In this document: positions 13,207 through 31,251 of the stretch, in pieces
Numbering within the stretch: position 1 is the first letter of the stretch
Layout: the number at the start of each line of letters is the position of its first letter
Source: Planctomycetia bacterium
GTDB taxonomy: Bacteria > Planctomycetota > UBA1135 > UBA2386
NCBI GenBank assembly: GCA_005776365.1
Contig: SXPK01000186.1
Coordinates: 1-42,999 of the forward strand
Reading direction: 5' to 3'
DNA length: 42,999 nt
Translations under genes and position numbers: made by a program
Notes under the pieces: model-generated
The model's database searches: none
Seen by the model: the letters and a program-made list of their open reading frames with translations, nothing else
Told to the model about the DNA's origin: nothing

Positions 13207-14322
13207 ATGCAACGTCGACTCCTCCCCCTCCTGTTCCTATCCGCCACGTCCGCCGCGCAGAACTACCTCTACCTGCCTGCGTCCACGTCGCCCAACGTCG
13301 TCGAATCGTCGAGCTACAACCTCCGGCCGTTCATGCAGACGAATAGCCGCGTGCAATTGTTTTACAGCGCGACCGAAGTCGGCGGCTCGCTGTTCACCGC
13401 CAACGCGTTGTCGTTTCGTTATGACGGCCCGATCCCGCAGGTCGGCGCGCCGGGCCCATTCTCCGTGCAACGCCTGCGCGTGCACGTCGGCACGACGCAG
13501 ATCGCGCAACCGACGGCCTCGTTCGGCGCCAACCTCTCGCAAGCGCTGACCACCGTGCACGACGCGGCCTTTTCCTATCTGCCCGACCCGGGCTCGGCAT
13601 TCCCGCATCCGTGGGAAGTGCCGAACACGTCGATGCGGATTCCATTCAACGCACCGCTGGGCGTCGCGATTCCTGCCGGCGGCTTTTTCGTCGTCGACGT
13701 GCAGATGGAAGGCAACAACATCGCCAACTTCGGTTTCTCGCACGCAATCCTCGACGGCTTCATGGCCACCGGAGGCGTCGCGAACGGCACGACGAGCAAT
13801 TTCGGTCAGGGCTGCAACGCCGCCATCGGTGCGCCAGCAGCGACGATCAGCACGACGGGCACGCACGCGCCCGGCGCTGCGCACTTCGTGTCGGGCCAGA
13901 ACCTCGGCGCCAGCACGATCGCGCTGCTCGTGCTTTCAGGCAGCAACACAACGAGCCAATACGGCCTGCTGCCCTTCAATCTGCCCACCACCAACTGCAA
14001 CCTCTACACCGAGACCGAACTCAGCTTCGTGATGTTCACGGATGCGAGCGGCGCGATCGCGCCAAACGCGCAAATGGGCGCGATCTCCGTGCCGGCCGAC
14101 CCTGCATTCGCCGGCGTCACGATCTACGAGCAGTTCGTCTCGCTGGTGCAATCCGCGAATCCATTCGGCTTCGTGCTCAGTGACGCGCGCGCGATCACCC
14201 TCGGCTCCTTCACGGCGCCATCGCTCGGGGTCTACACGGTCTCGCACGGCGCCGACGCGAACGCGGCGACCGCGGACAAGGTCGAGCCGTTCGGCTACGC
14301 TCTGCGGATTCAGTTGAACTGA
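13207..14322 (+). CDS. Secreted beta-rich hypothetical protein
   Basis: Signal peptide MQRRLLPLLFLSATSAAQ; S/T/N/G-rich mature region; strong GC3 bias in this frame. Confidence 0.85.
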   Translation: MQRRLLPLLFLSATSAAQNYLYLPASTSPNVVESSSYNLRPFMQTNSRVQLFYSATEVGGSLFTANALSFRYDGPIPQVGAPGPFSVQRLRVHVGTTQIAQPTASFGANLSQALTTVHDAAFSYLPDPGSAFPHPWEVPNTSMRIPFNAPLGVAIPAGGFFVVDVQMEGNNIANFGFSHAILDGFMATGGVANGTTSNFGQGCNAAIGAPAATISTTGTHAPGAAHFVSGQNLGASTIALLVLSGSNTTSQYGLLPFNLPTTNCNLYTETELSFVMFTDASGAIAPNAQMGAISVPADPAFAGVTIYEQFVSLVQSANPFGFVLSDARAITLGSFTAPSLGVYTVSHGADANAATADKVEPFGYALRIQLN

Positions 14323-14332
14323 AGCCCCGCCG

Positions 14333-15364
14333 TTGACCCGCAAAGGCCCGCTCCTCACTGCCTGCTTCCTCGTCGCCAACCTCGCGCTCGTTGCTTGGTG
14401 GACATGGTTCCAGGTCGCGCAGGCAACCGCGCTGCAAGATGCGGGTCAGTTCCTCGCCCGTGGCGAAGTCGATGCCGCGGCGCGCGCACTCGGCGCGACG
14501 GACGCACAGACGCTGCCCGAGCTTGCCGCGGCGCGCCGGCGCATGTTCTTGAGCGAGGGCTTGGCATTCACTGCCGTGCTCGCGCTGGCTGGCTTCGGCG
14601 TCCTGACTCTGTTGCGCCGTGAAGCGAAGCTCCGCGCCGACCAGGATCGATTCCTCGCCGGCGCGACGCACGAACTGAAGACGCCGCTCGCAACCATCCA
14701 ACTGCTGCTGGAGTCGTTGCGCGACGAGCGATTGCCGCAGGAGAAGCGCGACCGCTACCTGCAAAGCGGCCTGCTCGAGGGCCAGCGACTCGAATACGGG
14801 CTGACGAACCTGCTGACTGCGGCCGGCCTCCGCAGTGCTGGCGCGCGGCGCAGCACAAAGAGCGAAGCCGACCTCGCCGACGACGTGCGGCGTTCGATGC
14901 ACAAGCTGCAGGCCCGCGCCGAAGCCGCCGGAATTCGACTCTGCGAGGATCGCGTGAGCGCCGTGCGCATGCTGCGCGATCCCGAGGCAATGCACCTGGT
15001 GCTGCACAACCTGATCGACAACGCGATCAAGTACTCGATCCGCGGCGGCCGTGTGATGGTGTCGCTGCGCGAAGAGGCCAATGCAGCCGTCCTCGTCGTG
15101 CGCGACGAGGGCCTGGGGATGGACGATGAAGCGCTCACGAATGCCTTCGTTCCATTCTGGCGCGGCCGTGACTCTGGCACTGGCGGCACGGGACTCGGGC
15201 TGTTCCTCGTGCGCGGGCTCGTCGAATCGCATGGCGGCACGGTCGCGGCGGCAAGCGAGGGTCTTGGCAAGGGTGCGACGGTAACGGTTCGCATGCCGCG
15301 CCGCAGTTCCACGCCCATGCCTTCGCCGCGCACGAATGCCGCGCCCGACGAGGGCCGCGCATGA
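14333..15364 (+). CDS. Membrane sensor histidine kinase
   Basis: Two TM segments; H-box ATHELKTPL; N-box NLIDNAIKY; G1 DEGLG; F-box; G2 GTGLGL. Confidence 0.95.
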   Translation: MTRKGPLLTACFLVANLALVAWWTWFQVAQATALQDAGQFLARGEVDAAARALGATDAQTLPELAAARRRMFLSEGLAFTAVLALAGFGVLTLLRREAKLRADQDRFLAGATHELKTPLATIQLLLESLRDERLPQEKRDRYLQSGLLEGQRLEYGLTNLLTAAGLRSAGARRSTKSEADLADDVRRSMHKLQARAEAAGIRLCEDRVSAVRMLRDPEAMHLVLHNLIDNAIKYSIRGGRVMVSLREEANAAVLVVRDEGLGMDDEALTNAFVPFWRGRDSGTGGTGLGLFLVRGLVESHGGTVAAASEGLGKGATVTVRMPRRSSTPMPSPRTNAAPDEGRA

Positions 15365-16047
15365 GTCGCTGGATCCTGGTCGTCGAGGACGAACCAGTTC
15401 TCGGCGAGTTGCTCGTCGACAACCTGCAGCTCGAGTCCTACCACGCGGAGCTGGTGCGAAGCGGAGCAGACGCGCTGACGCGCATGGAGAAAGGCGGCAT
15501 CGATCTGCTGCTGCTCGACGTGATGCTGCCGGGCTGCGACGGCTTCACCGTGTTGCACCGACTGCGGCAGCGCGGCGACACGACGCCAGTACTGATCCTC
15601 AGTGCCCGCAGCGCCGACCACGACAAGATCCGCGGCCTCGAGCTGGAGGCCGACGATTACCTGACCAAGCCCTTCAATCTGCGCGAACTGCTGTTGCGGG
15701 TCGACGCGCTGCTGCGGCGCACGAACGCACCGAAGCCAGGCGCAGACACACTTTCGTTCGGCGGCAACTCGATCGACTTTCGCGCCATGCGCGCGACGAC
15801 ATGGTCCGGCGAGGACCTCGAGCTCACGGCGACCGAAGTAAGGCTGGTCAAGCTGATGTCGGCGCATGCCGGCACCGTCGTCAGCCGCAAGATCGTAGTC
15901 GAACATCTATTCGGCAGCTCCGCGCCATTGACGGTGCGCACGCTCGACAACGTCGTGTTGAGGCTGCGAAAGCTGTTCGAGCGCAACCCGGCTGAACCGA
16001 AGCACCTTCACACCGTGCGCGGACTCGGGCTTCGGTTCGATCCCTAG
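15361..16047 (+). CDS. OmpR/PhoB-family response regulator
   Basis: Receiver motifs VVEDE, LLDVMLP, KPF; winged helix ending HTVRGLG; ATGA-coupled to the kinase gene. Confidence 0.95.
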   Translation: MSRWILVVEDEPVLGELLVDNLQLESYHAELVRSGADALTRMEKGGIDLLLLDVMLPGCDGFTVLHRLRQRGDTTPVLILSARSADHDKIRGLELEADDYLTKPFNLRELLLRVDALLRRTNAPKPGADTLSFGGNSIDFRAMRATTWSGEDLELTATEVRLVKLMSAHAGTVVSRKIVVEHLFGSSAPLTVRTLDNVVLRLRKLFERNPAEPKHLHTVRGLGLRFDP

Positions 16048-16170
16048 CCGCGGATGCTGCGACAGATGGCGAAGGGCGAGGGCCACAGGGCGCGCTCGCG
16101 CCATCGGCTCGGCATTCCGTCGGAACCGAGACACGCGCACCCTGCGGGAGTAGAACTCCTGCCCCAAATC

Positions 16171-17178
16171 ATGAAGCCGCTCTACGTCTCGTCCTTGTTT
16201 CCGTCCCTCCTGTTGCTCGCGCCGCTCGCTGCCCAGGACGCCATCCAGCTCCAGCCGCCCAAGTCCGGCAAGATCGCATTCGTCCAGCTCGGCAAGCAGG
16301 AGCAGAACATCAATGCCGGCGGCCAGGAGATGAATGTCACCCAGGAGATGACGCACCACTTCACCATCGAAGTGACCGGCGTCGCCGACAACGGGACGCG
16401 GACCTTCACCGTCACGATCGAGCGCATCAACGGCAAGCTCGACATCCCGATGGCCGGCGAGATCGAGTTCGACTCGGCGGCGAAGGCCGACGGAGCGACC
16501 GAGGAGGAAGGCGAGGACGGCCCGATGGGCGGCATGGGCCTTCCGAGCGGCACCAAGATTTCGGCGGGTCTGCGCGAGCTCGCGGGCAAGTCGTTCACGA
16601 CGGAAGTCAGCGCCGATGGAACGATCGTGGGCATTGCTGGCTTCGACGAAGCGCGCAAGGCGGCGAAGCAAGCGTTCGGCGGCCCGGCCGCGCAGATGAT
16701 GGAAGGCGCATTTGCGGACCGCGGCCTCCAAGGCCTCGTCCGCGGCGCGATCGGTCATTTGCCGAAAGAAGCCGTTTCGGCCGGAAGCGAATGGGAGACG
16801 AAGAACGACGTCGGCGGCCAACTCCCCATGGAGCAGTCGCTCAAGATCACGGTCGCCAAGCTCGACGCGGCCACTGCCGAGTTGACCTACGCTGGTGAGT
16901 CCAAGGTCAAAGAGGGTGCGCGCATGCCGATGCCGGGCGCCGAGGTCGAGGGCGGCAAGGTCGAAGGCAAAGCGACGATCTCGCGCGCGGACGGCTTCAC
17001 CATCCATTCGAAGATCAGCAGTGGCATGTCGATTTTCGCCGAGAACGAGATGGTCGGCGAGATGACGATCGAGATGAAGATGACGTCGGAGACCAAGCGG
17101 GCGGATGCAGCAAAGGCGGAGCCGAAGCAGGACGAGGCGCAGAAGGAGCCCGCGAAGACGCCCGAAGCTGGCAAGTGA
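16171..17178 (+). CDS. Secreted protein, DUF6263-like
   Basis: Signal peptide; pattern EFDS...GKSFT.EVSADGTIV.I.G...LPKEAV.AGSEW resembles DUF6263. Confidence 0.65.
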   Translation: MKPLYVSSLFPSLLLLAPLAAQDAIQLQPPKSGKIAFVQLGKQEQNINAGGQEMNVTQEMTHHFTIEVTGVADNGTRTFTVTIERINGKLDIPMAGEIEFDSAAKADGATEEEGEDGPMGGMGLPSGTKISAGLRELAGKSFTTEVSADGTIVGIAGFDEARKAAKQAFGGPAAQMMEGAFADRGLQGLVRGAIGHLPKEAVSAGSEWETKNDVGGQLPMEQSLKITVAKLDAATAELTYAGESKVKEGARMPMPGAEVEGGKVEGKATISRADGFTIHSKISSGMSIFAENEMVGEMTIEMKMTSETKRADAAKAEPKQDEAQKEPAKTPEAGK

Positions 17179-17229
17179 GCGCGCCTGGATCGGTCGCGGG
17201 CGCCATCGTGGCGCCCGCCGCGCGGCGAC

Positions 17230-18540
17230 TCAGAACACGCGCACGGCAAGCACGTTCGACGACGACAGCGGCAGCGTGAAGTTGGCAGGATCGAATACGA
17301 CCGTCTGCAGCCAGATCTGACGGCCCGAGCCGACGCCGGTCGGCCCTTGCAGGTTGACGGTCCAAAGCCCGCTCGCGTCGGCGATGCCGATTGCCACTTC
17401 TCCATACGAAGTGAAGTTGTTGCCAAGACCGAGCGAGACGATGCCTGGTGCGACGCTAGGCACGTTGTCGAAAGCGGCGAGCAACAGGTTGTAGCGGCCG
17501 GCGTCTGAGTAGACGCGGAATGGGAACTGCACCTGCGTGTTGAGCACCGGCGGGCCTTCGAACCGCGGCGGGTCGATGCCATTGACCTGGATCACGAAGG
17601 CCTGGCTCGGTCCCGCGCCGCTCTCAACGGTGATTGGCGCCGGACCGATCGCCGGCAGAATCGGTGGCGTCACGCGCAACTGCGTCGACGACAGGACCTG
17701 GAAATTCACCACCGTGCTCCGAAACAGCACGCGAGAAGTCTCGTCGAGGCGTGCGCCCGTCAACGTGATCGCCGGCGTCTGGTAGCTCGGAACGACCGAC
17801 GGCGCAGCGCCGGTGACGACCGGCGGCTGCAGCGATCCATAGGTGCGGCGCAAGACCTCGAGGTCGCCGACACTGAGTTGCGTCCGCTGCCCCATCGTCG
17901 CTTGCTGCGATTGGTTGGGTGGCAAGGCGACGATCGTCGTTGCGCCGTTGATGCCGCCCTCCGTCGCGCCAAAGTGCATCACCGAGGCGAAGTCGTAGGG
18001 CTGGCCGTAGGTGTTGCCCAGCGGCACGAGACTGAACTCGACCGCCCGCGCCGGATCGATGTTGGCCTGCTGCACCTGAACGTAGGTATCGCGATCAGGC
18101 CGCTGGTGCTCGTGCCAGAAGCCAAGCACGTGCATCAACGCGTGAACGACTTCAAAGCGCGTCCCCCAGTTGGCGACGAACAGCGTCTGCATGCCGCCTT
18201 GACGTCCGATCGGAGACGAGTTGATGCTCGCGTCGCGAACCAACACGTAGTCCGTCTGCGTCGAGTGCGGCACGAACTGCACGCGCACGCGCGAGCTGAG
18301 TTCTTGCATCGCCGCAGCCAGACCTTGCGCCATCGCCGGAGTCACGCTCGCGTGCAATGCATAAGGAACGACGCCGTTCTGCCAAGCCTGCCCACCGAAC
18401 AGCCGCGCATGTGGCGACCCTCCAGCCATCAGGACGCATCCTGCATAGGGGCGCAGCAACACCGCGTCATCGACGGCGAGACGTTGCGCAGAAGCGGCAG
18501 CGCAGAGCGCGAGGACACAAGTCGACAGCAGGATGCGCAT
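17230..18540 (-). CDS. Astacin/M12A metallopeptidase-like protein (predicted inactive) with IPT/TIG domain and C-terminal domain
   Basis: Signal peptide; W.NGVVPY; S.IGRQGG.Q; HALMHVLGFWHEHQRPDRD; YDFASVMHF; IPT-like PVVTG..P...ITLTG...LRVTPP. Confidence 0.88.
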   Translation of the reverse strand: MRILLSTCVLALCAAASAQRLAVDDAVLLRPYAGCVLMAGGSPHARLFGGQAWQNGVVPYALHASVTPAMAQGLAAAMQELSSRVRVQFVPHSTQTDYVLVRDASINSSPIGRQGGMQTLFVANWGTRFEVVHALMHVLGFWHEHQRPDRDTYVQVQQANIDPARAVEFSLVPLGNTYGQPYDFASVMHFGATEGGINGATTIVALPPNQSQQATMGQRTQLSVGDLEVLRRTYGSLQPPVVTGAAPSVVPSYQTPAITLTGARLDETSRVLFRSTVVNFQVLSSTQLRVTPPILPAIGPAPITVESGAGPSQAFVIQVNGIDPPRFEGPPVLNTQVQFPFRVYSDAGRYNLLLAAFDNVPSVAPGIVSLGLGNNFTSYGEVAIGIADASGLWTVNLQGPTGVGSGRQIWLQTVVFDPANFTLPLSSSNVLAVRVF

Positions 18541-21068: not shown

Positions 21069-21713
21069 TCAGGTCGGCTTCAGTAACAGCTCACCTGTCG
21101 ACAGCCATCGCTCGACGGCGAGCAGTTCGTCGTGGCAGGGCACGTGAACGTGGCGAGGCACTCGACGAACGCGCGAGTCATCGCGCGAAAAGGGCGGCGG
21201 TGGATCGACCGACCACAAGGCGCTGGCGGCGCGCGGCGTCATGGCGAAGAAGATGAGCTCGGGCTCGGGCAACTCTTCATGCCACCCGACAAGGCGATCG
21301 GTGACGTCGTTCAGCAGCAACTGCCAGTTCTGCAAGCGCAGCCGCGATCCGTAGCGCGACTTGCCCTTCGTCCTTTGGTGCGTCACCTGCGCCTTGCCGT
21401 TGCCGCGCACGACGTAGCGCTTGGCTGCCTTATGGCGCACCAGCGCGTCGCCATCCCAGTAGCCCATCGCCATCGCGCCATACTGCAACAGAACGACTTC
21501 GTGTCGGAGCGGCAACAACGAGGCTCGTGCGAGATAGGCCGCGGCGCTCTCGCCCGGCCTCGCGTCCTCGAACACGGCTGGGAGGAGAAGTCGTGGCGCG
21601 AAGGGCTCGCCCTCCGCCACAAAGCAGCGACCGGCGGAGTCGGCCAACGAGCGCGGATATGCCGCGACAAAGTCGGTCAACTGCTCCTCGGCGTCCGCAC
21701 TACAAAAGCGCAT
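21069..21713 (-). CDS. VLRF1-family (Vms1-like, bVLRF1-type) release factor
   Basis: HK..KRYVVRGNGKAQVTH..TKGKSRYGSRLRLQN and PPF.RDD.R.R.VP.HV..P resemble the bVLRF1 family. Confidence 0.75.
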   Translation of the reverse strand: MRFCSADAEEQLTDFVAAYPRSLADSAGRCFVAEGEPFAPRLLLPAVFEDARPGESAAAYLARASLLPLRHEVVLLQYGAMAMGYWDGDALVRHKAAKRYVVRGNGKAQVTHQRTKGKSRYGSRLRLQNWQLLLNDVTDRLVGWHEELPEPELIFFAMTPRAASALWSVDPPPPFSRDDSRVRRVPRHVHVPCHDELLAVERWLSTGELLLKPT

Positions 21714-24137: not shown

Positions 24138-25240
24138 TCGAGCCACAACGAAGGCGGCTCGCAGTGATCATGGTCTGGGTGCCCGCCAAGGGACGGCTGC
24201 GTCGCGGGTCCGCTGCACAATCCCGAGGTCGCGATGGGCGCGCGGTCCTGGTCCTCAAGTCGGATCGTTCGACTCGGCTCGCAGTCACTCAATGAGCCCA
24301 CGTTGGGCGCGTGTTCATCGCTCGCGAGCGAGCACGCATAGAGGCGCAACGTTGCGAGCCCTTGGCTGTGGATGACGAAAGGATCACGCGAGATGCGGCT
24401 AAGCACTTCGCCCCATCGCTCTGCCAAGTGGACTGAAGGCAGTCGCAACGAACGAATGCTCGGGAGCCGCCGACGCGAAGCATCCACTTCGAGCAATCCT
24501 GGCCGTCGTTCCAGTGCGAATGCCGCACATAGGCCCAAGCACTTCCACTGAGAACTCGCGATGCATCGCAGCTGCAACGCGCAACACAACGAGATGCCTC
24601 GGCACCACAGATGGGCTGACAAGAGATTCAGGGCCTCGAGTCCTCACGCACCGTCCCGAATCGACGAAGTGCGCGAAACAAGGACTTCGGCGCCAGCGTT
24701 GCGCGACTGACCACTCCAGCATCCTGCGCTTCCGACAATCCGTTGTGACGATGGCAACCCGACCTGGCTACGAACTTCTGCTGCGCATCGCGCGGGATGT
24801 TCGTTGTGCACTGCCGACGCAGAGTCAGCAGCGGCGACTGGGCGAGATCCATCGCTGCGGTGCGCCGCTTGGTGATGCAGCAAGGCCATTGCGCATCGTC
24901 GTCGGCGAACTAGGGCCCGTCACTGCCTTCGAACTCATGCCCGCGTCGCTCGGGCTTTGCTGGGTTCTCGTCACAAAGCCGCGGCTCGCCACGATTCGTG
25001 CGAACCAGGCGCCGGTCTTGTGCGCAGTGAATTGCGCGCCCTTCAGCGCGTTGTCGTTGACCACATCGAGAAGAGCACAAAGCGGCACTCGCGGACCTTC
25101 GCGCAATCGCCACCGAGCTACACGCAGCCCATCGACGCATGCGCGTCATGGCGAGCGAGTCTTCTCGGCAGCGAGGCGCTCGAGCGGAGTCTGCCGCAAC
25201 CCATCTACATCGAGACCGCGCACGGAACGCGCGCGTGCCC

Positions 25241-25254
25241 TCGAACTGAATCAA
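25241..25254 (+). promoter_or_regulatory. Weak FNR/Crp-family-like box upstream of the nos operon
   Basis: TCGAA-CTGA-ATCAA matches 8 of 10 positions of TTGAT-N4-ATCAA. Confidence 0.25.
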
Positions 25255-25280
25255 CCACCGTCGCACCGAAGGAAGTGCTT

Positions 25281-25688
25281 ATGAGACTCGCCACCAGGAC
25301 CATTCTCGCGCCGACTGCCACCCTGTGCCTTCTCGCCCTCGTCTCCGCATGCGGTGGCGACGACGCGAAGGCGCAACGCCGTTCCTTCTCGGTCCCTGCC
25401 GCCCGCAAAGAAGCGAACGACCTCTACCAATCGCTGTGCTCCACCTGCCACGGCCCGTCCGGGCGAGGCGATGGGCCAGGAGCAGCTGCCTGCGACCCCA
25501 AGCCTCGGACCTTTCTCGACGTAGCTTGGCAATCGTCGGTCACTGACGAACACATCGTCAAGACGGTGACCTTTGGCGGCGCAGCCGTCGGGAAGAGCCC
25601 GCAGATGCCGGCTCAACCCCAACTCAAGGGCAAGACCGAAGTCCTCCAACACCTCGTCGCAATCGTCCGCGGCTTCGCGGCGCAATGA
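25281..25688 (+). CDS. Monoheme cytochrome c lipoprotein (NosC-like)
   Basis: Lipobox LVSAC; CSTCH; G.GDGP; SPQMP axial Met; RBS GAAGGA upstream. Confidence 0.9.
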   Translation: MRLATRTILAPTATLCLLALVSACGGDDAKAQRRSFSVPAARKEANDLYQSLCSTCHGPSGRGDGPGAAACDPKPRTFLDVAWQSSVTDEHIVKTVTFGGAAVGKSPQMPAQPQLKGKTEVLQHLVAIVRGFAAQ

Positions 25689-25747
25689 CGACCGTCCGCC
25701 GAGCTACCGCATTCCCGCCAGTTCCCATGACTCGAAGGAGCATTGCC

Positions 25748-27712
25748 ATGAACGACAGTCCCCGATCCATCCGTCTACTGGCCTTCGCAACGTGCGCCGC
25801 GCTCGCGGCCTCGTGCGGTGAAGGCAGCCCAGCGTCCGCCGGAGCCTCCTCGATCGGAGGCGACGCCCGGACGATCATCGCCGAGCGCAACCTGAACGAA
25901 GCCGACGTGTCGGCAGCGCTGTCGACCTACACGCCCACGGGACGCCACGACGAGTACTACACGTTTGCGTCCGGCGGCCACGCAGGCAACATCATCGTGA
26001 TCGGGGTGCCGAGCATGCGCATCCTGAAGTACATCGCGGTGTTCACCCCCGAGCCGTGGCAGGGCTACGGCTACGGCGACGAGAGCGGCGACCTCCTCAA
26101 AGCAGGCAGCCGCGCCGGCAACCTGATCACCTGGGCGGACCAGCACCACCCTGCGCTCAGCGAGAGCGGCGGCGAATATGACGGCCGTTGGCTGTTCATC
26201 GGCGACAAGGCGAACCCGCGCATGGCGGTCATCGACTTGCGGGACTTCATGACCAAGCAGATCGTCACGAGCGAGCTGCTGCAATCCGATCACGGCGCAG
26301 CCTTCGTCACGCCAGACACTGACTACGTGATCGAGACGTCGCAGTATCCGGCGCCACTCGGCGGCAAGTACGCGCCGATCGAGAGCTACGACGCCGAGTA
26401 TCGCGGCGCGATGGTGTTCTGGAAGTTCGACAAGCAGAAGGGGCGGATCATCCCCGAGCAGTCCTTCGCCATCGAACTGCCGCCGTACATGCAAGACCTC
26501 GCTGACGCAGGCAAGCGGGTCAGCGACGGCTGGGTGTTCTGCAACTCGATCAACACGGAACGGGCATGGGGCGGCACGATGGAAGGTAAGCCCTCGCTCG
26601 AGTCCGGGTCGACGCAGAACGACATGGACTACCTCCACTGCATTCCGTGGAAGAAGGCGGAGCAGGTCGCGGCCGCCGGGAAGACGGAAACGATCGCCGG
26701 CATGCGCACGATCCGGCTGCAGACCGCGATCGACGAAGGTCTCTTGTTCCTCGTGCCGGAGCCGAAGAGCCCGCACGGTGTCGACATCACGCCAGACGGT
26801 GAGGACATCGTCGTCGGCGGCAAGCTCGACACGCACTGCACGGTCTACAGCGCGACGAAGATCAAGGACCTCGCGGAGCAGAAGAAGTTCGCCGGACGTG
26901 ACCCCTACGGAGTCCCTGTCCTCGACTTCAAGCAGTCGATCCGCGGCCAGTGCGAGATCGGCCTCGGCCCGCTTCACACGCAGTTCGACGGCCAAGGCAA
27001 TGCCTACACCTCGGTGTTCATCGAGTCCGTCGTGGCGAAGTGGTCGCTCAAGGACCTCAAGTTGATCGAGAAGATCGACTCACACTTCAACATCGGTCAC
27101 CTGTGCGCCGCCGAAGGCGACACCGTGTCCCCGGACGGCAAGTACCTGCTGGCGATGAACAAGTGGGCGCTCGACCGCTTCGCGCCTGTCGGCCCGCTGC
27201 TGCCGCAGAACTTCCAACTCGTCGGCCTGGCAGGCCAAAAGATGACGCGGCTCTATGACATGCCACTGCCGCTGGGCGAACCGCACTACGCGCAGATGAT
27301 CAAGGCGGACAAGCTCAAGCCCATCGAGGTCTACACGCCGATCGGCACCAACCCGTTCCACGAAGGCGTCGATCCAAACGCGGTGACCGCCGGCAAGGAA
27401 CGCATCGAGCGCAAGGACGACGGCGTGCACGTCTGGATGACCGCGGTGCGCAGCCACTTCACCCCGGACATCGTCCGCGTGAAGGAAGGCGACGTGGTCC
27501 ACCTGCACGTCACCAACGTCGAGCAAGCGCACGACGCCACGCACGGCCTCGCGATCGGTTCTCACAACGTCAACCTGAGCCTCGAGCCGGGCAAGCACTG
27601 CAACGTCACCTTCACGGCCAAGCGAGCGGGCGTCTACCCGTTCTACTGCACCGAGGTCTGCTCGGCGCTGCACCTGGAGATGGCGGGCTACTTGCTCGTC
27701 GAGCCGCGCTGA
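25748..27712 (+). CDS. nosZ: Sec-dependent (clade II) nitrous oxide reductase
   Basis: CuZ His motifs DQHHP, DHG, SPHG, GPLH, NIGH, EPHY; CuA motifs THG and CTEVCSALHLEM; IAVFTPEPWQGYG is typical of clade II; RBS GAAGGAG; lipobox LAASC. Confidence 0.97.
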   Translation: MNDSPRSIRLLAFATCAALAASCGEGSPASAGASSIGGDARTIIAERNLNEADVSAALSTYTPTGRHDEYYTFASGGHAGNIIVIGVPSMRILKYIAVFTPEPWQGYGYGDESGDLLKAGSRAGNLITWADQHHPALSESGGEYDGRWLFIGDKANPRMAVIDLRDFMTKQIVTSELLQSDHGAAFVTPDTDYVIETSQYPAPLGGKYAPIESYDAEYRGAMVFWKFDKQKGRIIPEQSFAIELPPYMQDLADAGKRVSDGWVFCNSINTERAWGGTMEGKPSLESGSTQNDMDYLHCIPWKKAEQVAAAGKTETIAGMRTIRLQTAIDEGLLFLVPEPKSPHGVDITPDGEDIVVGGKLDTHCTVYSATKIKDLAEQKKFAGRDPYGVPVLDFKQSIRGQCEIGLGPLHTQFDGQGNAYTSVFIESVVAKWSLKDLKLIEKIDSHFNIGHLCAAEGDTVSPDGKYLLAMNKWALDRFAPVGPLLPQNFQLVGLAGQKMTRLYDMPLPLGEPHYAQMIKADKLKPIEVYTPIGTNPFHEGVDPNAVTAGKERIERKDDGVHVWMTAVRSHFTPDIVRVKEGDVVHLHVTNVEQAHDATHGLAIGSHNVNLSLEPGKHCNVTFTAKRAGVYPFYCTEVCSALHLEMAGYLLVEPR

Positions 27713-27741
27713 ACCGGAGCGATCCGCAGAACGGTGCTGCA

Positions 27742-29064
27742 ATGAACCGCCTCCCTTTCCTCCTGCTCGCCGCCCTTGCCGCATCCTGCGGCAAGGGGCG
27801 CGCAGCGCCGGTCGCGAGCCGCCCGGTTCCGCAAGGCGGAGTCGTGGTCGAGGCGGGCCAGAAGCTCCAGGCGATCGTCGATGCAGCGCAAGATGGCGCC
27901 GTGCTGACGCTCGCCGACGGCGCTCACAGAGGGCCTGTAGTCGTCGATCGCGGCATCACCTTGCAGGGCAAGGTGACTGCCTGCATCGAAGGCGGCGGTT
28001 CGGGCTCCACCGTCACGCTGCGTGGCAAAGCCAGCAAGTTGCTCGGCTGCACGATCCGTGGCAGCGGCGATCGACTCGATACGCAGGACAGCGCGGTGCA
28101 CGTCGAAGGCGAAGCCATCGTCGTCGAGGGCGTGCGGATCGAGGGCGCATTGTTCGGCGTGCTGGTGCACAAGAGCAACGCGGTCGTCATCCGTGACAAC
28201 TTGATCCTCGGCAATGGCGCCGAAGCGATGGGCCTCCGCGGCGACGGCATCCGCCTCTGGGAAACACGCGGGTCCGAGGTCTCGGGCAACTTCGTCCGTG
28301 ACCACCGCGACGTCGTCGTCTGGTACTCGCCGAACAACCGCGTCACCGGCAACCACGTCGAACGATGCCGCTACGGGACGCACTACATGTTCAGCCATGA
28401 CAACGTCGTCGAAGACAACGTCTATCTCGATGACGTGGTCGGCATCTTCGTGATGTACAGCCACGACCTCGCAATCCGCCGCAACCTCTTGGCGCGCGCC
28501 TCCGGCTCCGCTGGCATCGGGTTGGGCGTGAAGGAATCCGGCAATCTCCGTGTGGAGGACAACTGGTTCGTCCAGGACACGACCGGCATCTACCTCGACA
28601 CCTCTCCACTCGACCCCCAGCACCACGATTGGTTTCGGGGCAACGTGATCCGGCTGTGCGACACCGCGCTTCATCTGCACGCAAAGACGCCGCGCAACGA
28701 CTTCCGCGACAACCTGTTCGCGGACAATGGCGCCGTCATCGCGGTCGGCGGCGAAGGCGACGCACTCTCGTGTGTGTTCGAAGGCAACTACTACGACGTC
28801 TACCAGGGCTACGACTTGGATGGCGACGGCTTTGGTGACGTGCCGTTCGAACTGCGCCGCTTGTCGAGCCAGATGGAATCGCGTTATCCGGACCTCGCGC
28901 TGCTGCATGGCGCGCCGGTCATGGCCGCCGTCGACATGATGTCGCAACTGGTGCCGTTGTTCGCCCCGCGCACCCTGATGCGGGACTCGCGGCCGCGCCT
29001 GGATGAGCCTTCGCCCGTGTTCGTCCCCGCGCCGATCCTGGAGGCAGAGCGCCATGCGCGTTGA
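27742..29064 (+). CDS. nosD: Nitrous oxide reductase maturation protein NosD
   Basis: Beta-helix repeats; RGDGIRLW; RYGTHYMFS; GNYYDVYQGYDLDGDGFGDVPF; lipobox LAASC. Confidence 0.95.
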   Translation: MNRLPFLLLAALAASCGKGRAAPVASRPVPQGGVVVEAGQKLQAIVDAAQDGAVLTLADGAHRGPVVVDRGITLQGKVTACIEGGGSGSTVTLRGKASKLLGCTIRGSGDRLDTQDSAVHVEGEAIVVEGVRIEGALFGVLVHKSNAVVIRDNLILGNGAEAMGLRGDGIRLWETRGSEVSGNFVRDHRDVVVWYSPNNRVTGNHVERCRYGTHYMFSHDNVVEDNVYLDDVVGIFVMYSHDLAIRRNLLARASGSAGIGLGVKESGNLRVEDNWFVQDTTGIYLDTSPLDPQHHDWFRGNVIRLCDTALHLHAKTPRNDFRDNLFADNGAVIAVGGEGDALSCVFEGNYYDVYQGYDLDGDGFGDVPFELRRLSSQMESRYPDLALLHGAPVMAAVDMMSQLVPLFAPRTLMRDSRPRLDEPSPVFVPAPILEAERHAR

Positions 29065-29932
29065 ACTCAAGAACGTCTGCAAGCGCTTCGGCAAGTTTGC
29101 GGCACTGCAGGATGTGACGCTTGCCTTCGCCTCCGGCTCGCGCACCGCGCTGGTCGGACCCAATGGTTCCGGCAAGTCGACGTTGGTCCGCATGCTGATG
29201 GGGATGCTCGAGGGCGACGGCGAGTTGACTCTCGACGGCCTGGATCCGGCGCAGCGACGCCAGGAGCTCGCGCCCCGCATCGCCTACGTTCCGCAAGTCG
29301 CGCCGAGGTTGTGGGCCAACGTCCGCGACCTGGTGCGCGCCACGGTCGGACTTCGTGGAGGAACGGAGTCGCGCGTCGTTGAGATTGCGGCCCAACTCGG
29401 GCTCGACCTCGAGGCCGTCGCGCTGCGGCCGTTCCGAGCGTTGTCCGGAGGCATGCGGCAAAAGGCGCTCGCAGCAACCGCCTTGGCGTCCGCCGCGGAC
29501 CTGCTGATCCTCGACGAGCCGACAGCCAGCATGGATCCGCGGAGCCGCGCGACCTTTCACCGCCTGCTCGACGACTTGCCGCAGCGCCCCACCGTGCTGC
29601 TCTGCTCCCACCGCCTCGAGGAGATCCGCCGCCACGTCGACTCCGTCGTCGAGTTGGCCGAGGGCAAGATCGCATGGCAGGGCGCATCGCGTGACTGGCT
29701 CGAAGCGCATTCGGAATGCGTGGTCGAACTGAGAACTGTCGACCAGCGAGCCGGCGAATGGCTCGCGCTGCGCGGCTTCTGCCGCGTGCGCAGCGATTGG
29801 TGGCAACTCGCAGTGCCGACCGCACAGCGGGCCGCGCTCGTCAGCGAAGTCATTCGCGAACTTGACGACGCCGTGCTCGACCTCCTGGCGCGAGATCTCG
29901 AGAGCGCCGAACCACAAGCCGTCCCCCTTTGA
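29054..29932 (+). CDS. nosF: ABC ATPase NosF
   Basis: GPNGSGKST, LSGGM, ILDEP, SH; overlaps the nosD end. Confidence 0.9.
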   Translation: MRVELKNVCKRFGKFAALQDVTLAFASGSRTALVGPNGSGKSTLVRMLMGMLEGDGELTLDGLDPAQRRQELAPRIAYVPQVAPRLWANVRDLVRATVGLRGGTESRVVEIAAQLGLDLEAVALRPFRALSGGMRQKALAATALASAADLLILDEPTASMDPRSRATFHRLLDDLPQRPTVLLCSHRLEEIRRHVDSVVELAEGKIAWQGASRDWLEAHSECVVELRTVDQRAGEWLALRGFCRVRSDWWQLAVPTAQRAALVSEVIRELDDAVLDLLARDLESAEPQAVPL

Positions 29933-29941
29933 GGAATGTCG

Positions 29942-30415
29942 ATGAGCCCCTCTGCCCTCGGAACCCGCATCCTGCTCGCCGCTGTCTTCTTGACTGCGGC
30001 AAGCGCGCTCGGGGCCGCAGTCCTCTCCGCGAACGCACTGCCAGATGGTCCAGCGCACGTGGTCTGGGACAAGGCCGCATGCGAACACTGTCGCATGCAC
30101 CTCGGCGAGCCGGCGTTCGCGGCGCAAGTCGTCTGCAAGGACGGGCGCGTCGCATTGTTCGACGACCCAGGTTGCTTGTTCGAGTGGCTCGACACCGAGC
30201 GCCCCGAGGTGCACGCGACATGGTTCCACGAGCTGCGCGGCACGAGTTGGCTGCGCGGCGAAACGGCGATCTTCGAGCGCGTCGAACAAACACCGATGGG
30301 CTACGGAATCGGCGCAGTCGCGCACGCGCACGGCGACGGCGCGACGATGACCTTTGAGCAAGCCAACGCCCATTGCCTCACGAAGAACTCCACCCCGTCG
30401 GGAGTGACCCGGTGA
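29942..30415 (+). CDS. nosL: Copper chaperone NosL
   Basis: CEHCRM, FDDPGC and TPMGYG motifs; N-terminal hydrophobic anchor. Alternative start 29936. Confidence 0.87.
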   Translation: MSPSALGTRILLAAVFLTAASALGAAVLSANALPDGPAHVVWDKAACEHCRMHLGEPAFAAQVVCKDGRVALFDDPGCLFEWLDTERPEVHATWFHELRGTSWLRGETAIFERVEQTPMGYGIGAVAHAHGDGATMTFEQANAHCLTKNSTPSGVTR

Positions 30416-31251
30416 CTTTCGCCACCCAGCTCGCGGTCGTAGCGCGGCTCGATCTCGCGGAAGTGCGCCGCTCACGCTGGCTCGCCTCGTGCCTCATCGT
30501 CCACTTCTTGCTCGCGGCGGCGTTCGTGCTCGTCGGCCTACGAGAGTCGTCGGTGCTGGGTTTCACGGGCATGGGCCGCGCGCTGATGTCTCTGAGCCAC
30601 GCACTCGTGTTCCTGCTGCCGCTGCTGGCGTTGGTCGCGACTGCACAAGTGGTCAACGGCGCACGCGACGATGGCACGCTGGAGTTGCTGCTGAGCCACC
30701 CGGTGTCGCGGCGAGGTTGGTTTGCCGGAACGACGCTGCTGCGGCTGTGCGCCCTGGTCGCGCCACTGCTCGTTGCAATGCCGATCATGGCGATCGTCGG
30801 ATCCCTCGCGTTCGGCCAGGACATCCCGTGGAGCTACCTGGCAAGAACGCTGCTGGTCGGAACCTCACTGCTCGCTTGCTACACGGCGATCGGACTGTGG
30901 ATCTCGACCTTCGTGCGCAACCAGGCCAAAGCATTGATGCTCGCCGTGCTCGCCTGGGCGGCCAGCGTCGCATTCCTCGACTTCGGTCTCGTCGGCATGA
31001 TGTTGCAGTGGCGGCTGCCGCCAGCGTCCGTCTTCTCGATCGCTGCGCTCAATCCAGTCCAGTGCGCGCGCCTTGCGCTGCTCTCGGCGGCGCAGCCCGA
31101 ACTGTCCACCTTCGGTCCCGTGGGATTCTGGCTCGCGAATCGAGTCGGCACGGTCGGCCTGTTCGCGATCGGAATCGGCTGGCCGCTGCTGCTCGGGCTC
31201 ACGACGTGGACGCACGCGCAGGCCCGGTTCTGCCGCCGCGACCTCCTCTGA
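30412..31251 (+). CDS. nosY: ABC permease NosY
   Basis: About 6 TM segments; RDDGTLELLLSHPVSR; LNPV..AR; GTGA overlap with the nosL stop. Confidence 0.9.
   Translation: MTFATQLAVVARLDLAEVRRSRWLASCLIVHFLLAAAFVLVGLRESSVLGFTGMGRALMSLSHALVFLLPLLALVATAQVVNGARDDGTLELLLSHPVSRRGWFAGTTLLRLCALVAPLLVAMPIMAIVGSLAFGQDIPWSYLARTLLVGTSLLACYTAIGLWISTFVRNQAKALMLAVLAWAASVAFLDFGLVGMMLQWRLPPASVFSIAALNPVQCARLALLSAAQPELSTFGPVGFWLANRVGTVGLFAIGIGWPLLLGLTTWTHAQARFCRRDLL

Follow-up and report, generated by a model that had tools for sequence, protein, structure and literature searches.

An uncatalogued, predicted Ig-like domain on about 100 exported proteins of a planctomycete: a possible cell-surface handle

The window studied here, a 42,999-nucleotide contig of a Planctomycetia bacterium (contig C169 of G000, a 3.66-Mb, 65%-complete genome), encodes two secreted proteins, protein 1 and protein 2, which, as profile comparisons indicate, share a homologous domain at or near their C-termini. 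Our data indicate that this domain, hereafter the handle domain, forms a real, very large and uncatalogued family, that it is a tag of the many-to-one exported-protein type and that it does not match the C-terminal domain (CTD) of the type IX secretion system (T9SS), to which a preliminary description of the window had likened it. We propose, with a confidence that falls just short of even, that the domain is an uncleaved, non-covalent handle that docks about 100 unrelated Sec-signal proteins on a shared cell-surface partner after export.

Results

The two proteins of the window and their parts are as follows (SPI, signal peptidase I; HMM, hidden Markov model).

13207..14322, + strand: protein 1, 371 aa, with a signal peptide, a ~170-aa N-terminal domain, the handle domain and a 38-aa extension; no Pfam or NCBIfam match
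13207..13257, + strand: predicted Sec/SPI signal peptide of protein 1, Gln at +1 (home-made score 4.5; sequence reading)
13258..13776, + strand: unnamed N-terminal cargo domain of protein 1; the genome has further paralogues, 7 close and 4 weaker
13795..14205, + strand: copy of the handle domain in protein 1, residues ~197-333 (200-331 aligned to the HMM at 77 bits; the model includes this copy)
14206..14319, + strand: C-terminal extension of protein 1, 38 aa past the domain, kept in 7 protein-1-type paralogues
17230..18540, - strand: protein 2, 436 aa, with a signal peptide, an astacin (M12A) peptidase, a TIG domain and a divergent handle domain
18487..18540, - strand: predicted Sec/SPI signal peptide of protein 2, Gln at +1 (home-made score 4.85)
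17839..18384, - strand: astacin catalytic domain of protein 2, residues 53-234, with a zinc-binding HExxH-type motif (PF01400, E 1e-39)
17614..17823, - strand: IPT/TIG domain of protein 2, residues 240-309 (PF01833, E 1.7e-5)
17233..17577, - strand: divergent copy of the handle domain in protein 2, residues ~322-436, lying at the very C-terminus and lacking the conserved cysteines (profile comparisons)

The preliminary description had quoted six motifs as a common pattern of the two segments, and all six are present where it placed them, at residues 278-282, 295-313 and 318-332 of protein 1 and 387-391, 399-416 and 420-435 of protein 2. The pair alone does not rise above chance: direct BLASTP between the proteins gave a best E of 3.1, without significance, and jackhmmer started from either segment did not recover the other, although the protein 2 segment matches one member of the domain family at E 1.2e-4. 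At the profile level, a domain HMM iterated from the protein 1 segment, with protein 2 kept out of the model, gives protein 2 a score of 18.4 bits (E 6e-4), the best reversed decoy reaching 9.9 bits. When a profile built from protein 2 together with 11 orthologues was compared with alignment A1 by HHalign, the probability was 89.6, E 1.9e-6 and the score 37.7; five further windows of the alignment scored at most 15.9, and 40 column shuffles at most 15.4. These comparisons indicate that the two segments are homologous, a relationship visible at profile level only. Protein 2 is among the most divergent copies and misses the two cysteines; modelled without an alignment, its tail reached a predicted local distance difference test (pLDDT) of 35, and no superposition of both segments was obtained. 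Two details of the earlier picture need correction, since the domain measures about 125-135 aa, not ~100, and in protein 1 it is followed by the 38 residues of the extension, which are also conserved in orthologues.

In G000, a jackhmmer search begun with the protein 1 segment settled at 73 reading frames. On the 3,001 genes predicted by a simple gene caller, with reversed sequences as decoys, the iterated HMM found the domain in 99, roughly 3%. Twelve further divergent tails, weaker and some of them seeded by eye, bring the total to about 111. The suggestion that the pattern recurs on many exported proteins is supported, with about 100 in this genome, and so is the enrichment at C-termini that was to be tested: 82 of the 99 copies end within 10 aa of the stop and 5 at 11-20 aa. 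Six carriers, protein 1 included, have 35-45 residues past the domain; in another six, 245-381 residues follow and include FGE-sulfatase, Kelch or glycine-rich domains. N-terminal and internal positions occur among the carriers, and a protein almost always has one copy. The FGE-sulfatase lies C-terminal to the domain in three of them (L005:4-1263, L005:2482-4926 and L043:4-1245); this fold is a common target of diversity-generating retroelements. A signal peptide followed by the domain only was seen in G000:C160 (L042:4-438) and likewise, below threshold at 13.3 bits, in G000:C63:12341-12739.

Two cysteines are conserved in the domain, as are several glycines and prolines, a single glutamine and an S/T-N-G/A terminus; 32 of 63 alignment rows have both cysteines. 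Its make-up is apolar and near-uncharged (Lys 0.3%, median net charge -3). An AlphaFold2 model of the protein 1 domain is all-beta, ends in a beta-strand and has a pLDDT of 89.8; the predicted fold is an immunoglobulin (Ig)-like beta-sandwich. The top structural matches are generic Ig, macroglobulin (MG) and Fn3 folds (Z up to 7.8, root-mean-square deviation 3.3, 109 aligned), a level that the tool calls common. Foldseek returned nothing at E<=0.001, its weak top rows including macromomycin (E 0.018) and MD-1 (E 0.14). Among the 50 rows listed by a wide structural search there was no T9SS CTD or cohesin chain, and either may be present further down.

The family extends well beyond this genome, with 24,788 relatives at E<=0.001 (clusters at 50% identity), and 148 of the best 150 outside matches end within 10 residues of the C-terminus. 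In our phylum sample of 301 Planctomycetota genomes (domain threshold E<=1e-5, 13 candidates scored per genome, which makes the carrier counts lower bounds), 63 genomes carry the domain and they form one part of the phylum, in line with the lineage specificity first suggested. In the single-contig genome G166, 148 of 150 scored candidates were positive, and three small genomes gave 24-37. Single copies were seen in G283 (L060) and G195 (L061), of families f58 and f62, most sampled members of which are domain-negative; they are possible gene transfers and would be useful for testing cargo function without the clade's machinery. A match to an already described Pfam family, which the preliminary description had named as a refutation, was not found, nor was one to NCBIfam or PDB sequences. 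All 30 ESM Atlas matches are unnamed, the best three mostly from Planctomycetota. The domain is not described in the full-text literature searched, a body that leaves most subscription papers outside, as it does supplements, including those of PMC6461901 and bioRxiv 10.1101/817700; in the accessible part of the latter the words 'secretion' and 'C-terminal' are absent.

Carrier statistics on signals and lipoboxes were computed on 87 carriers, and catalogue scans on 63 domain copies or carriers. A home-made score (not SignalP) called a signal peptide in 61 of the 87 carriers versus 588 of 2,605 other genes, the enrichment that the preliminary description had proposed to look for; among the carriers missed, about a dozen show a plausible signal if translation begins at another start, and contig ends truncate four. 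A lipobox was found in none of the 87 carriers versus 129 of 792 other signal proteins (1/87 versus 139/792 without a filter that favours carriers). The MauG paralogues divide in the same manner, three lipoprotein-like ones lacking the domain and two SPI ones having it. Lipid anchor and handle domain are almost mutually exclusive. A transmembrane-like stretch in the mature part was seen in 3 of 87 carriers. After the SPI cleavage site, as predicted, glutamine is the residue met most often (in 39 of 61 carriers and in 115 of 466 soluble signal proteins that are not carriers), which recalls the Q-rule of Bacteroidota.

The cargo varies widely, its 96 parts forming 51 clusters, and 29 of the 63 scanned carriers have Pfam cargo such as S8, C1, M14 and trypsin peptidases, Kelch, PKD, CHRD, GDSL, MauG and FGE-sulfatase. 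Carriers differ from other proteins in composition (Lys 0.7% vs 3.2%, Glu 2.2% vs 5.9%, Asn 4.9% vs 2.3%) and are also poor in Arg and rich in Thr, a composition of the extracellular type. On the corresponding axis, 30 of 1,775 non-carriers reach the first quartile of the carriers, including, as read by eye, a flagellar hook protein and Ig lipoproteins. Carriers probably make up most of the outer secretome.

Within the order to which G000 belongs, the domain is present in 120 of 121 genomes. In G015, the one exception (91% complete), dockerin (PF00404) matches number 39 at E<=0.001 and 44 at 0.01, whereas four order-mates have none and G000 likewise has none. All five FG-GAP proteins of G015 end in dockerin-like repeats, and of the 16 dockerin proteins recovered, 3 have homologues among the handle-bearing cargo of G000 (E 1e-31 to 4e-9). 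An RpoB tree of 29 taxa (four sequences partial; G000 without rpoB) nests G015 in the order with a FastTree support of 0.996. Its dockerin loci correlate with its own core DNA in tetranucleotide usage at r 0.94, others reaching at most 0.64, and one of them shares a contig with core genes. A weak domain match in G015 (10.8 bits, 37 aa, in a 90-aa frame) was discarded. Across the phylum (20 candidates scored per genome; dockerin-rich meaning at least 7 matches), 34 genomes are dockerin-rich, none of them among the 63 carriers, which have at most 5 dockerin matches.

Turning to the export machinery, PorV was found in none of five genomes, the single-contig G166 included, with a working control, and SprA in none of the five with a control that was silent everywhere. 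Peptidase C25 occurs in only two of the five. Secretins number 3-9 per genome, and G166 has a GspD/E/F operon in which GspF lies above its cut-off and GspE and GspD just under or under theirs. The preliminary description had anticipated a co-occurring dedicated translocon or peptidase; none emerged among the three candidates that we profiled, which are GspD, a paired-secretin locus and an Ig/propeller lipoprotein, and none of these separates function from kinship. GspD is present in 57 of 63 carrier genomes and also in 56 of the 238 others, the GspD-bearing domain-negative genomes including sister families whose S8 peptidases lack the domain. In sister families f33, f42, f58 and f62, no divergent tail was seen on 8 complete S8 C-termini (10 of 17 loci usable, none for G177).

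The paired-secretin locus of G166 (L086:8135 to L087:5117) has two large secretins on either side of a TolQ/ExbB-like gene and a pair of ExbD-like ones (ExbD by eye); the first secretin is lipoprotein-like, and a HAD hydrolase and a MamK-family actin (NF040964, above cut-off) follow. The locus, which resembles a proton-driven envelope machine, is also found at L096-L097 (G185) and partly at G000:C82; in G015 a decarboxylase, not ExbBD, lies between two secretins. As dedicated machinery it was rejected, homologues of its secretin occurring in 226 of 301 genomes, far more widely than the domain. A domain-specific secretin was likewise rejected, since G015 has lost no conserved secretin clade. 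The third candidate, the 994-aa lipoprotein G000:C117 (L175:4393-7374), combines Ig domains of the Big_5 type with a YncE-like propeller and has a terminal tetrapeptide that is conserved. It was found in 25 of 30 domain-rich genomes, neither of two single-copy ones and 2 of 24 negatives, and is a candidate surface scaffold, S-layer component or handle partner. A self-BLAST screen for repeat-rich scaffolds found none and was probably uninformative.

Discussion

The handle domain shares features with several known systems. The preliminary description had drawn an analogy with the T9SS type A CTD of Bacteroidota (TIGR04183 / PF18962), and of its two halves the attachment half fits our data better than the T9SS half. 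In type A CTDs, too, a single domain, a beta-sandwich as predicted here, is found on ~100 unrelated SPI proteins of a genome, mostly C-terminal and on similar cargo. However, none of the 63 handle copies matches TIGR04183 / PF18962 at E<=0.5, and the handle domain is longer, usually has two cysteines and occurs N-terminally and internally in genomes where PorV was not found. Like the non-cellulosomal dockerin tails of the 'planctosome' hypothesis, as set out in PMC6461901, the handle is a terminal module on dozens of exported enzymes; dockerins take the same position on homologous cargo in G015, and the two expansions are mutually exclusive. Sequence and fold are nonetheless unrelated, with paired calcium-binding repeats there and an all-beta model here; PF00404 matches none of the 63 copies, and no cohesin-type partner of the handle is known. 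PEP-CTERM, GlyGly-CTERM and MYXO-CTERM are also many-to-one, lineage-restricted tags of exported proteins. These consist of a short motif, a transmembrane helix and basic residues (compare PMC11980579), whereas the handle is a folded domain without a terminal helix. Finally, the T2SS (type II secretion system) pectate lyases Pel3 and PelI have an Fn3 domain, thus Ig/Fn3-like, whose loops can contribute to T2SS recognition according to PMC7949064; that case concerns one enzyme family, and ours about 50 cargo families whose T2SS export is putative.

A model consistent with our data begins with Sec export and SPI cleavage, both predicted. The cargo would then fold in the periplasm, often with one disulfide, as suggested by the two conserved cysteines and the c-type haem cargo, and would cross the outer membrane via the GspD secretin of the T2SS, a route that we favour because GspD/E/F is present and no T9SS part was found. 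Once outside, the handle would bind a surface scaffold instead of a lipid anchor, in the manner proposed for dockerins in other planctomycetes. PMC6461901 proposes such dockerin-based docking of peptidases on a surface scaffold for freshwater planctomycetes. In favour of this reading we count the attachment of one domain to many unrelated cargoes, the near-exclusion between lipid anchor and handle, the extracellular type of composition, the natural exchange for dockerins in G015 and the separation of dockerin-rich genomes from carriers across the phylum. The tolerance of the domain for residues behind it in some carriers fits a folded handle.

Several points weigh against docking on a shared partner. 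No partner emerged from the candidates considered, and the strong C-terminal bias fits an export signal equally well. The stand-alone protein G000:C160 hints at a function of the domain's own, and the composition axis from which we estimate the outer secretome was trained on the carriers themselves. The swap in G015 rests on one assembled genome, the only member of its family, and cohesin searches in that genome gave no match, leaving its dockerins without a known receptor. Exclusion between dockerins and handles across the phylum follows kinship and comes near to a single contrast, and the dockerin docking model of PMC6461901 is a hypothesis itself. As to the machinery, GspD is not carrier-specific and its distribution follows kinship, and the Ig/propeller lipoprotein is kept in the domain-less G015 and not found in 5 of 30 carriers.

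We weighed three other readings, of which the most credible, though we consider it doubtful, is that the domain is a modular T2SS address label, read by GspC/GspD or the pseudopilus tip, the cargo then being released or otherwise held; an Ig-plus-dockerin tail would have taken over this role in G015. The frequency of GspD among carriers (57/63), the GspD/E/F operon of G166 and the retention of every conserved secretin clade in G015 are in line with this, as is a cargo that, judging by its haem c and cysteines, must fold in the periplasm, and PMC7949064 counts Fn3-domain loops of Pel3 as part of the T2SS signal. The same paper nevertheless describes T2SS signals as composite and structural rather than as a shared domain, some extracellular-looking G000 proteins lack the handle, and GspD is found in 56 of 238 domain-less genomes, including sister families with domain-less S8 peptidases. 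Docking and a T2SS address label can both hold.

It is unlikely, in our judgment, that the domain is an ordinary lipid-, lipopolysaccharide- or glycan-binding module spread by shuffling, which would attach straight to the outer membrane or to a substrate and need no protein partner. Its apolar, near-uncharged make-up, the Ig-like predicted fold, the stand-alone copy and the cavity-bearing beta-sandwiches (macromomycin, MD-1) among the weak top Foldseek rows, none of them significant, would agree with such a module; confinement to one clade and replacement by dockerin, an established protein-binding module, argue against it, and a single, nearly always terminal copy is unlike typical carbohydrate-binding modules. 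Least probable, to the point that we give it little credence, is a C-terminal signal of T9SS-like type, which a translocon and sortase of its own, both undescribed, would cleave and conjugate. The cargo classes are alike, the predicted fold class is similar, the C-terminal bias is strong, and the SPI signals often have Gln at +1 (39/61 versus 115/466). Against these likenesses stand the N-terminal and internal copies, the lack of PorV matches in the five genomes under a working control (and of SprA matches under a silent one), the presence of peptidase C25 in only two of the five, and an alignment in which no conserved cleavage motif was seen by eye ahead of the domain.

More broadly, it is conceivable, although we would bet against it, that a clade-wide, portable folded domain serves as a universal handle of the outer secretome, read by the T2SS or by a dedicated scaffold and interchangeable with dockerin. 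If true, this handle would amount to a new system of protein display or to the first type II secretion signal that is domain-sized and transplantable, and the cohesin-poor dockerin expansions of planctomycetes could be explained by that same function. The domain marks roughly 3% of genes and thus offers an immediate way to list the outer secretome of these bacteria. Cargo selection by the T2SS is an open question according to PMC7949064, and a domain shared by cargo would make it directly testable by fusion. The swap in G015 is a natural experiment in which genes kept in carriers and lost in G015 form a shortlist of partners, and it ties the domain to the dockerin tails, so far unexplained, that other planctomycetes have.

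Other features of the window

Three genes lie between those of protein 1 and protein 2, and none of their products has the handle domain.

14333-15364, + strand: histidine kinase
15361-16047, + strand: response regulator
16171-17178, + strand: DUF6263 protein

All 13 orthologue loci of protein 1 adjoin the same pair of histidine kinase and response regulator, and protein 1 may be co-regulated with, or serve as an input to, this two-component system (window 13207-16047). Further along, a nitrous oxide reductase cluster (24957-31251, + strand) encodes a cytochrome c, NosZ, NosD, an ABC ATPase and a permease; NosZ and NosD lack the handle domain, in line with expectation for periplasmic proteins. 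A release factor of the bVLRF1 family (PF18826, a name taken from Bacteroidetes) is encoded at 21069-21713 on the - strand of this planctomycete window.

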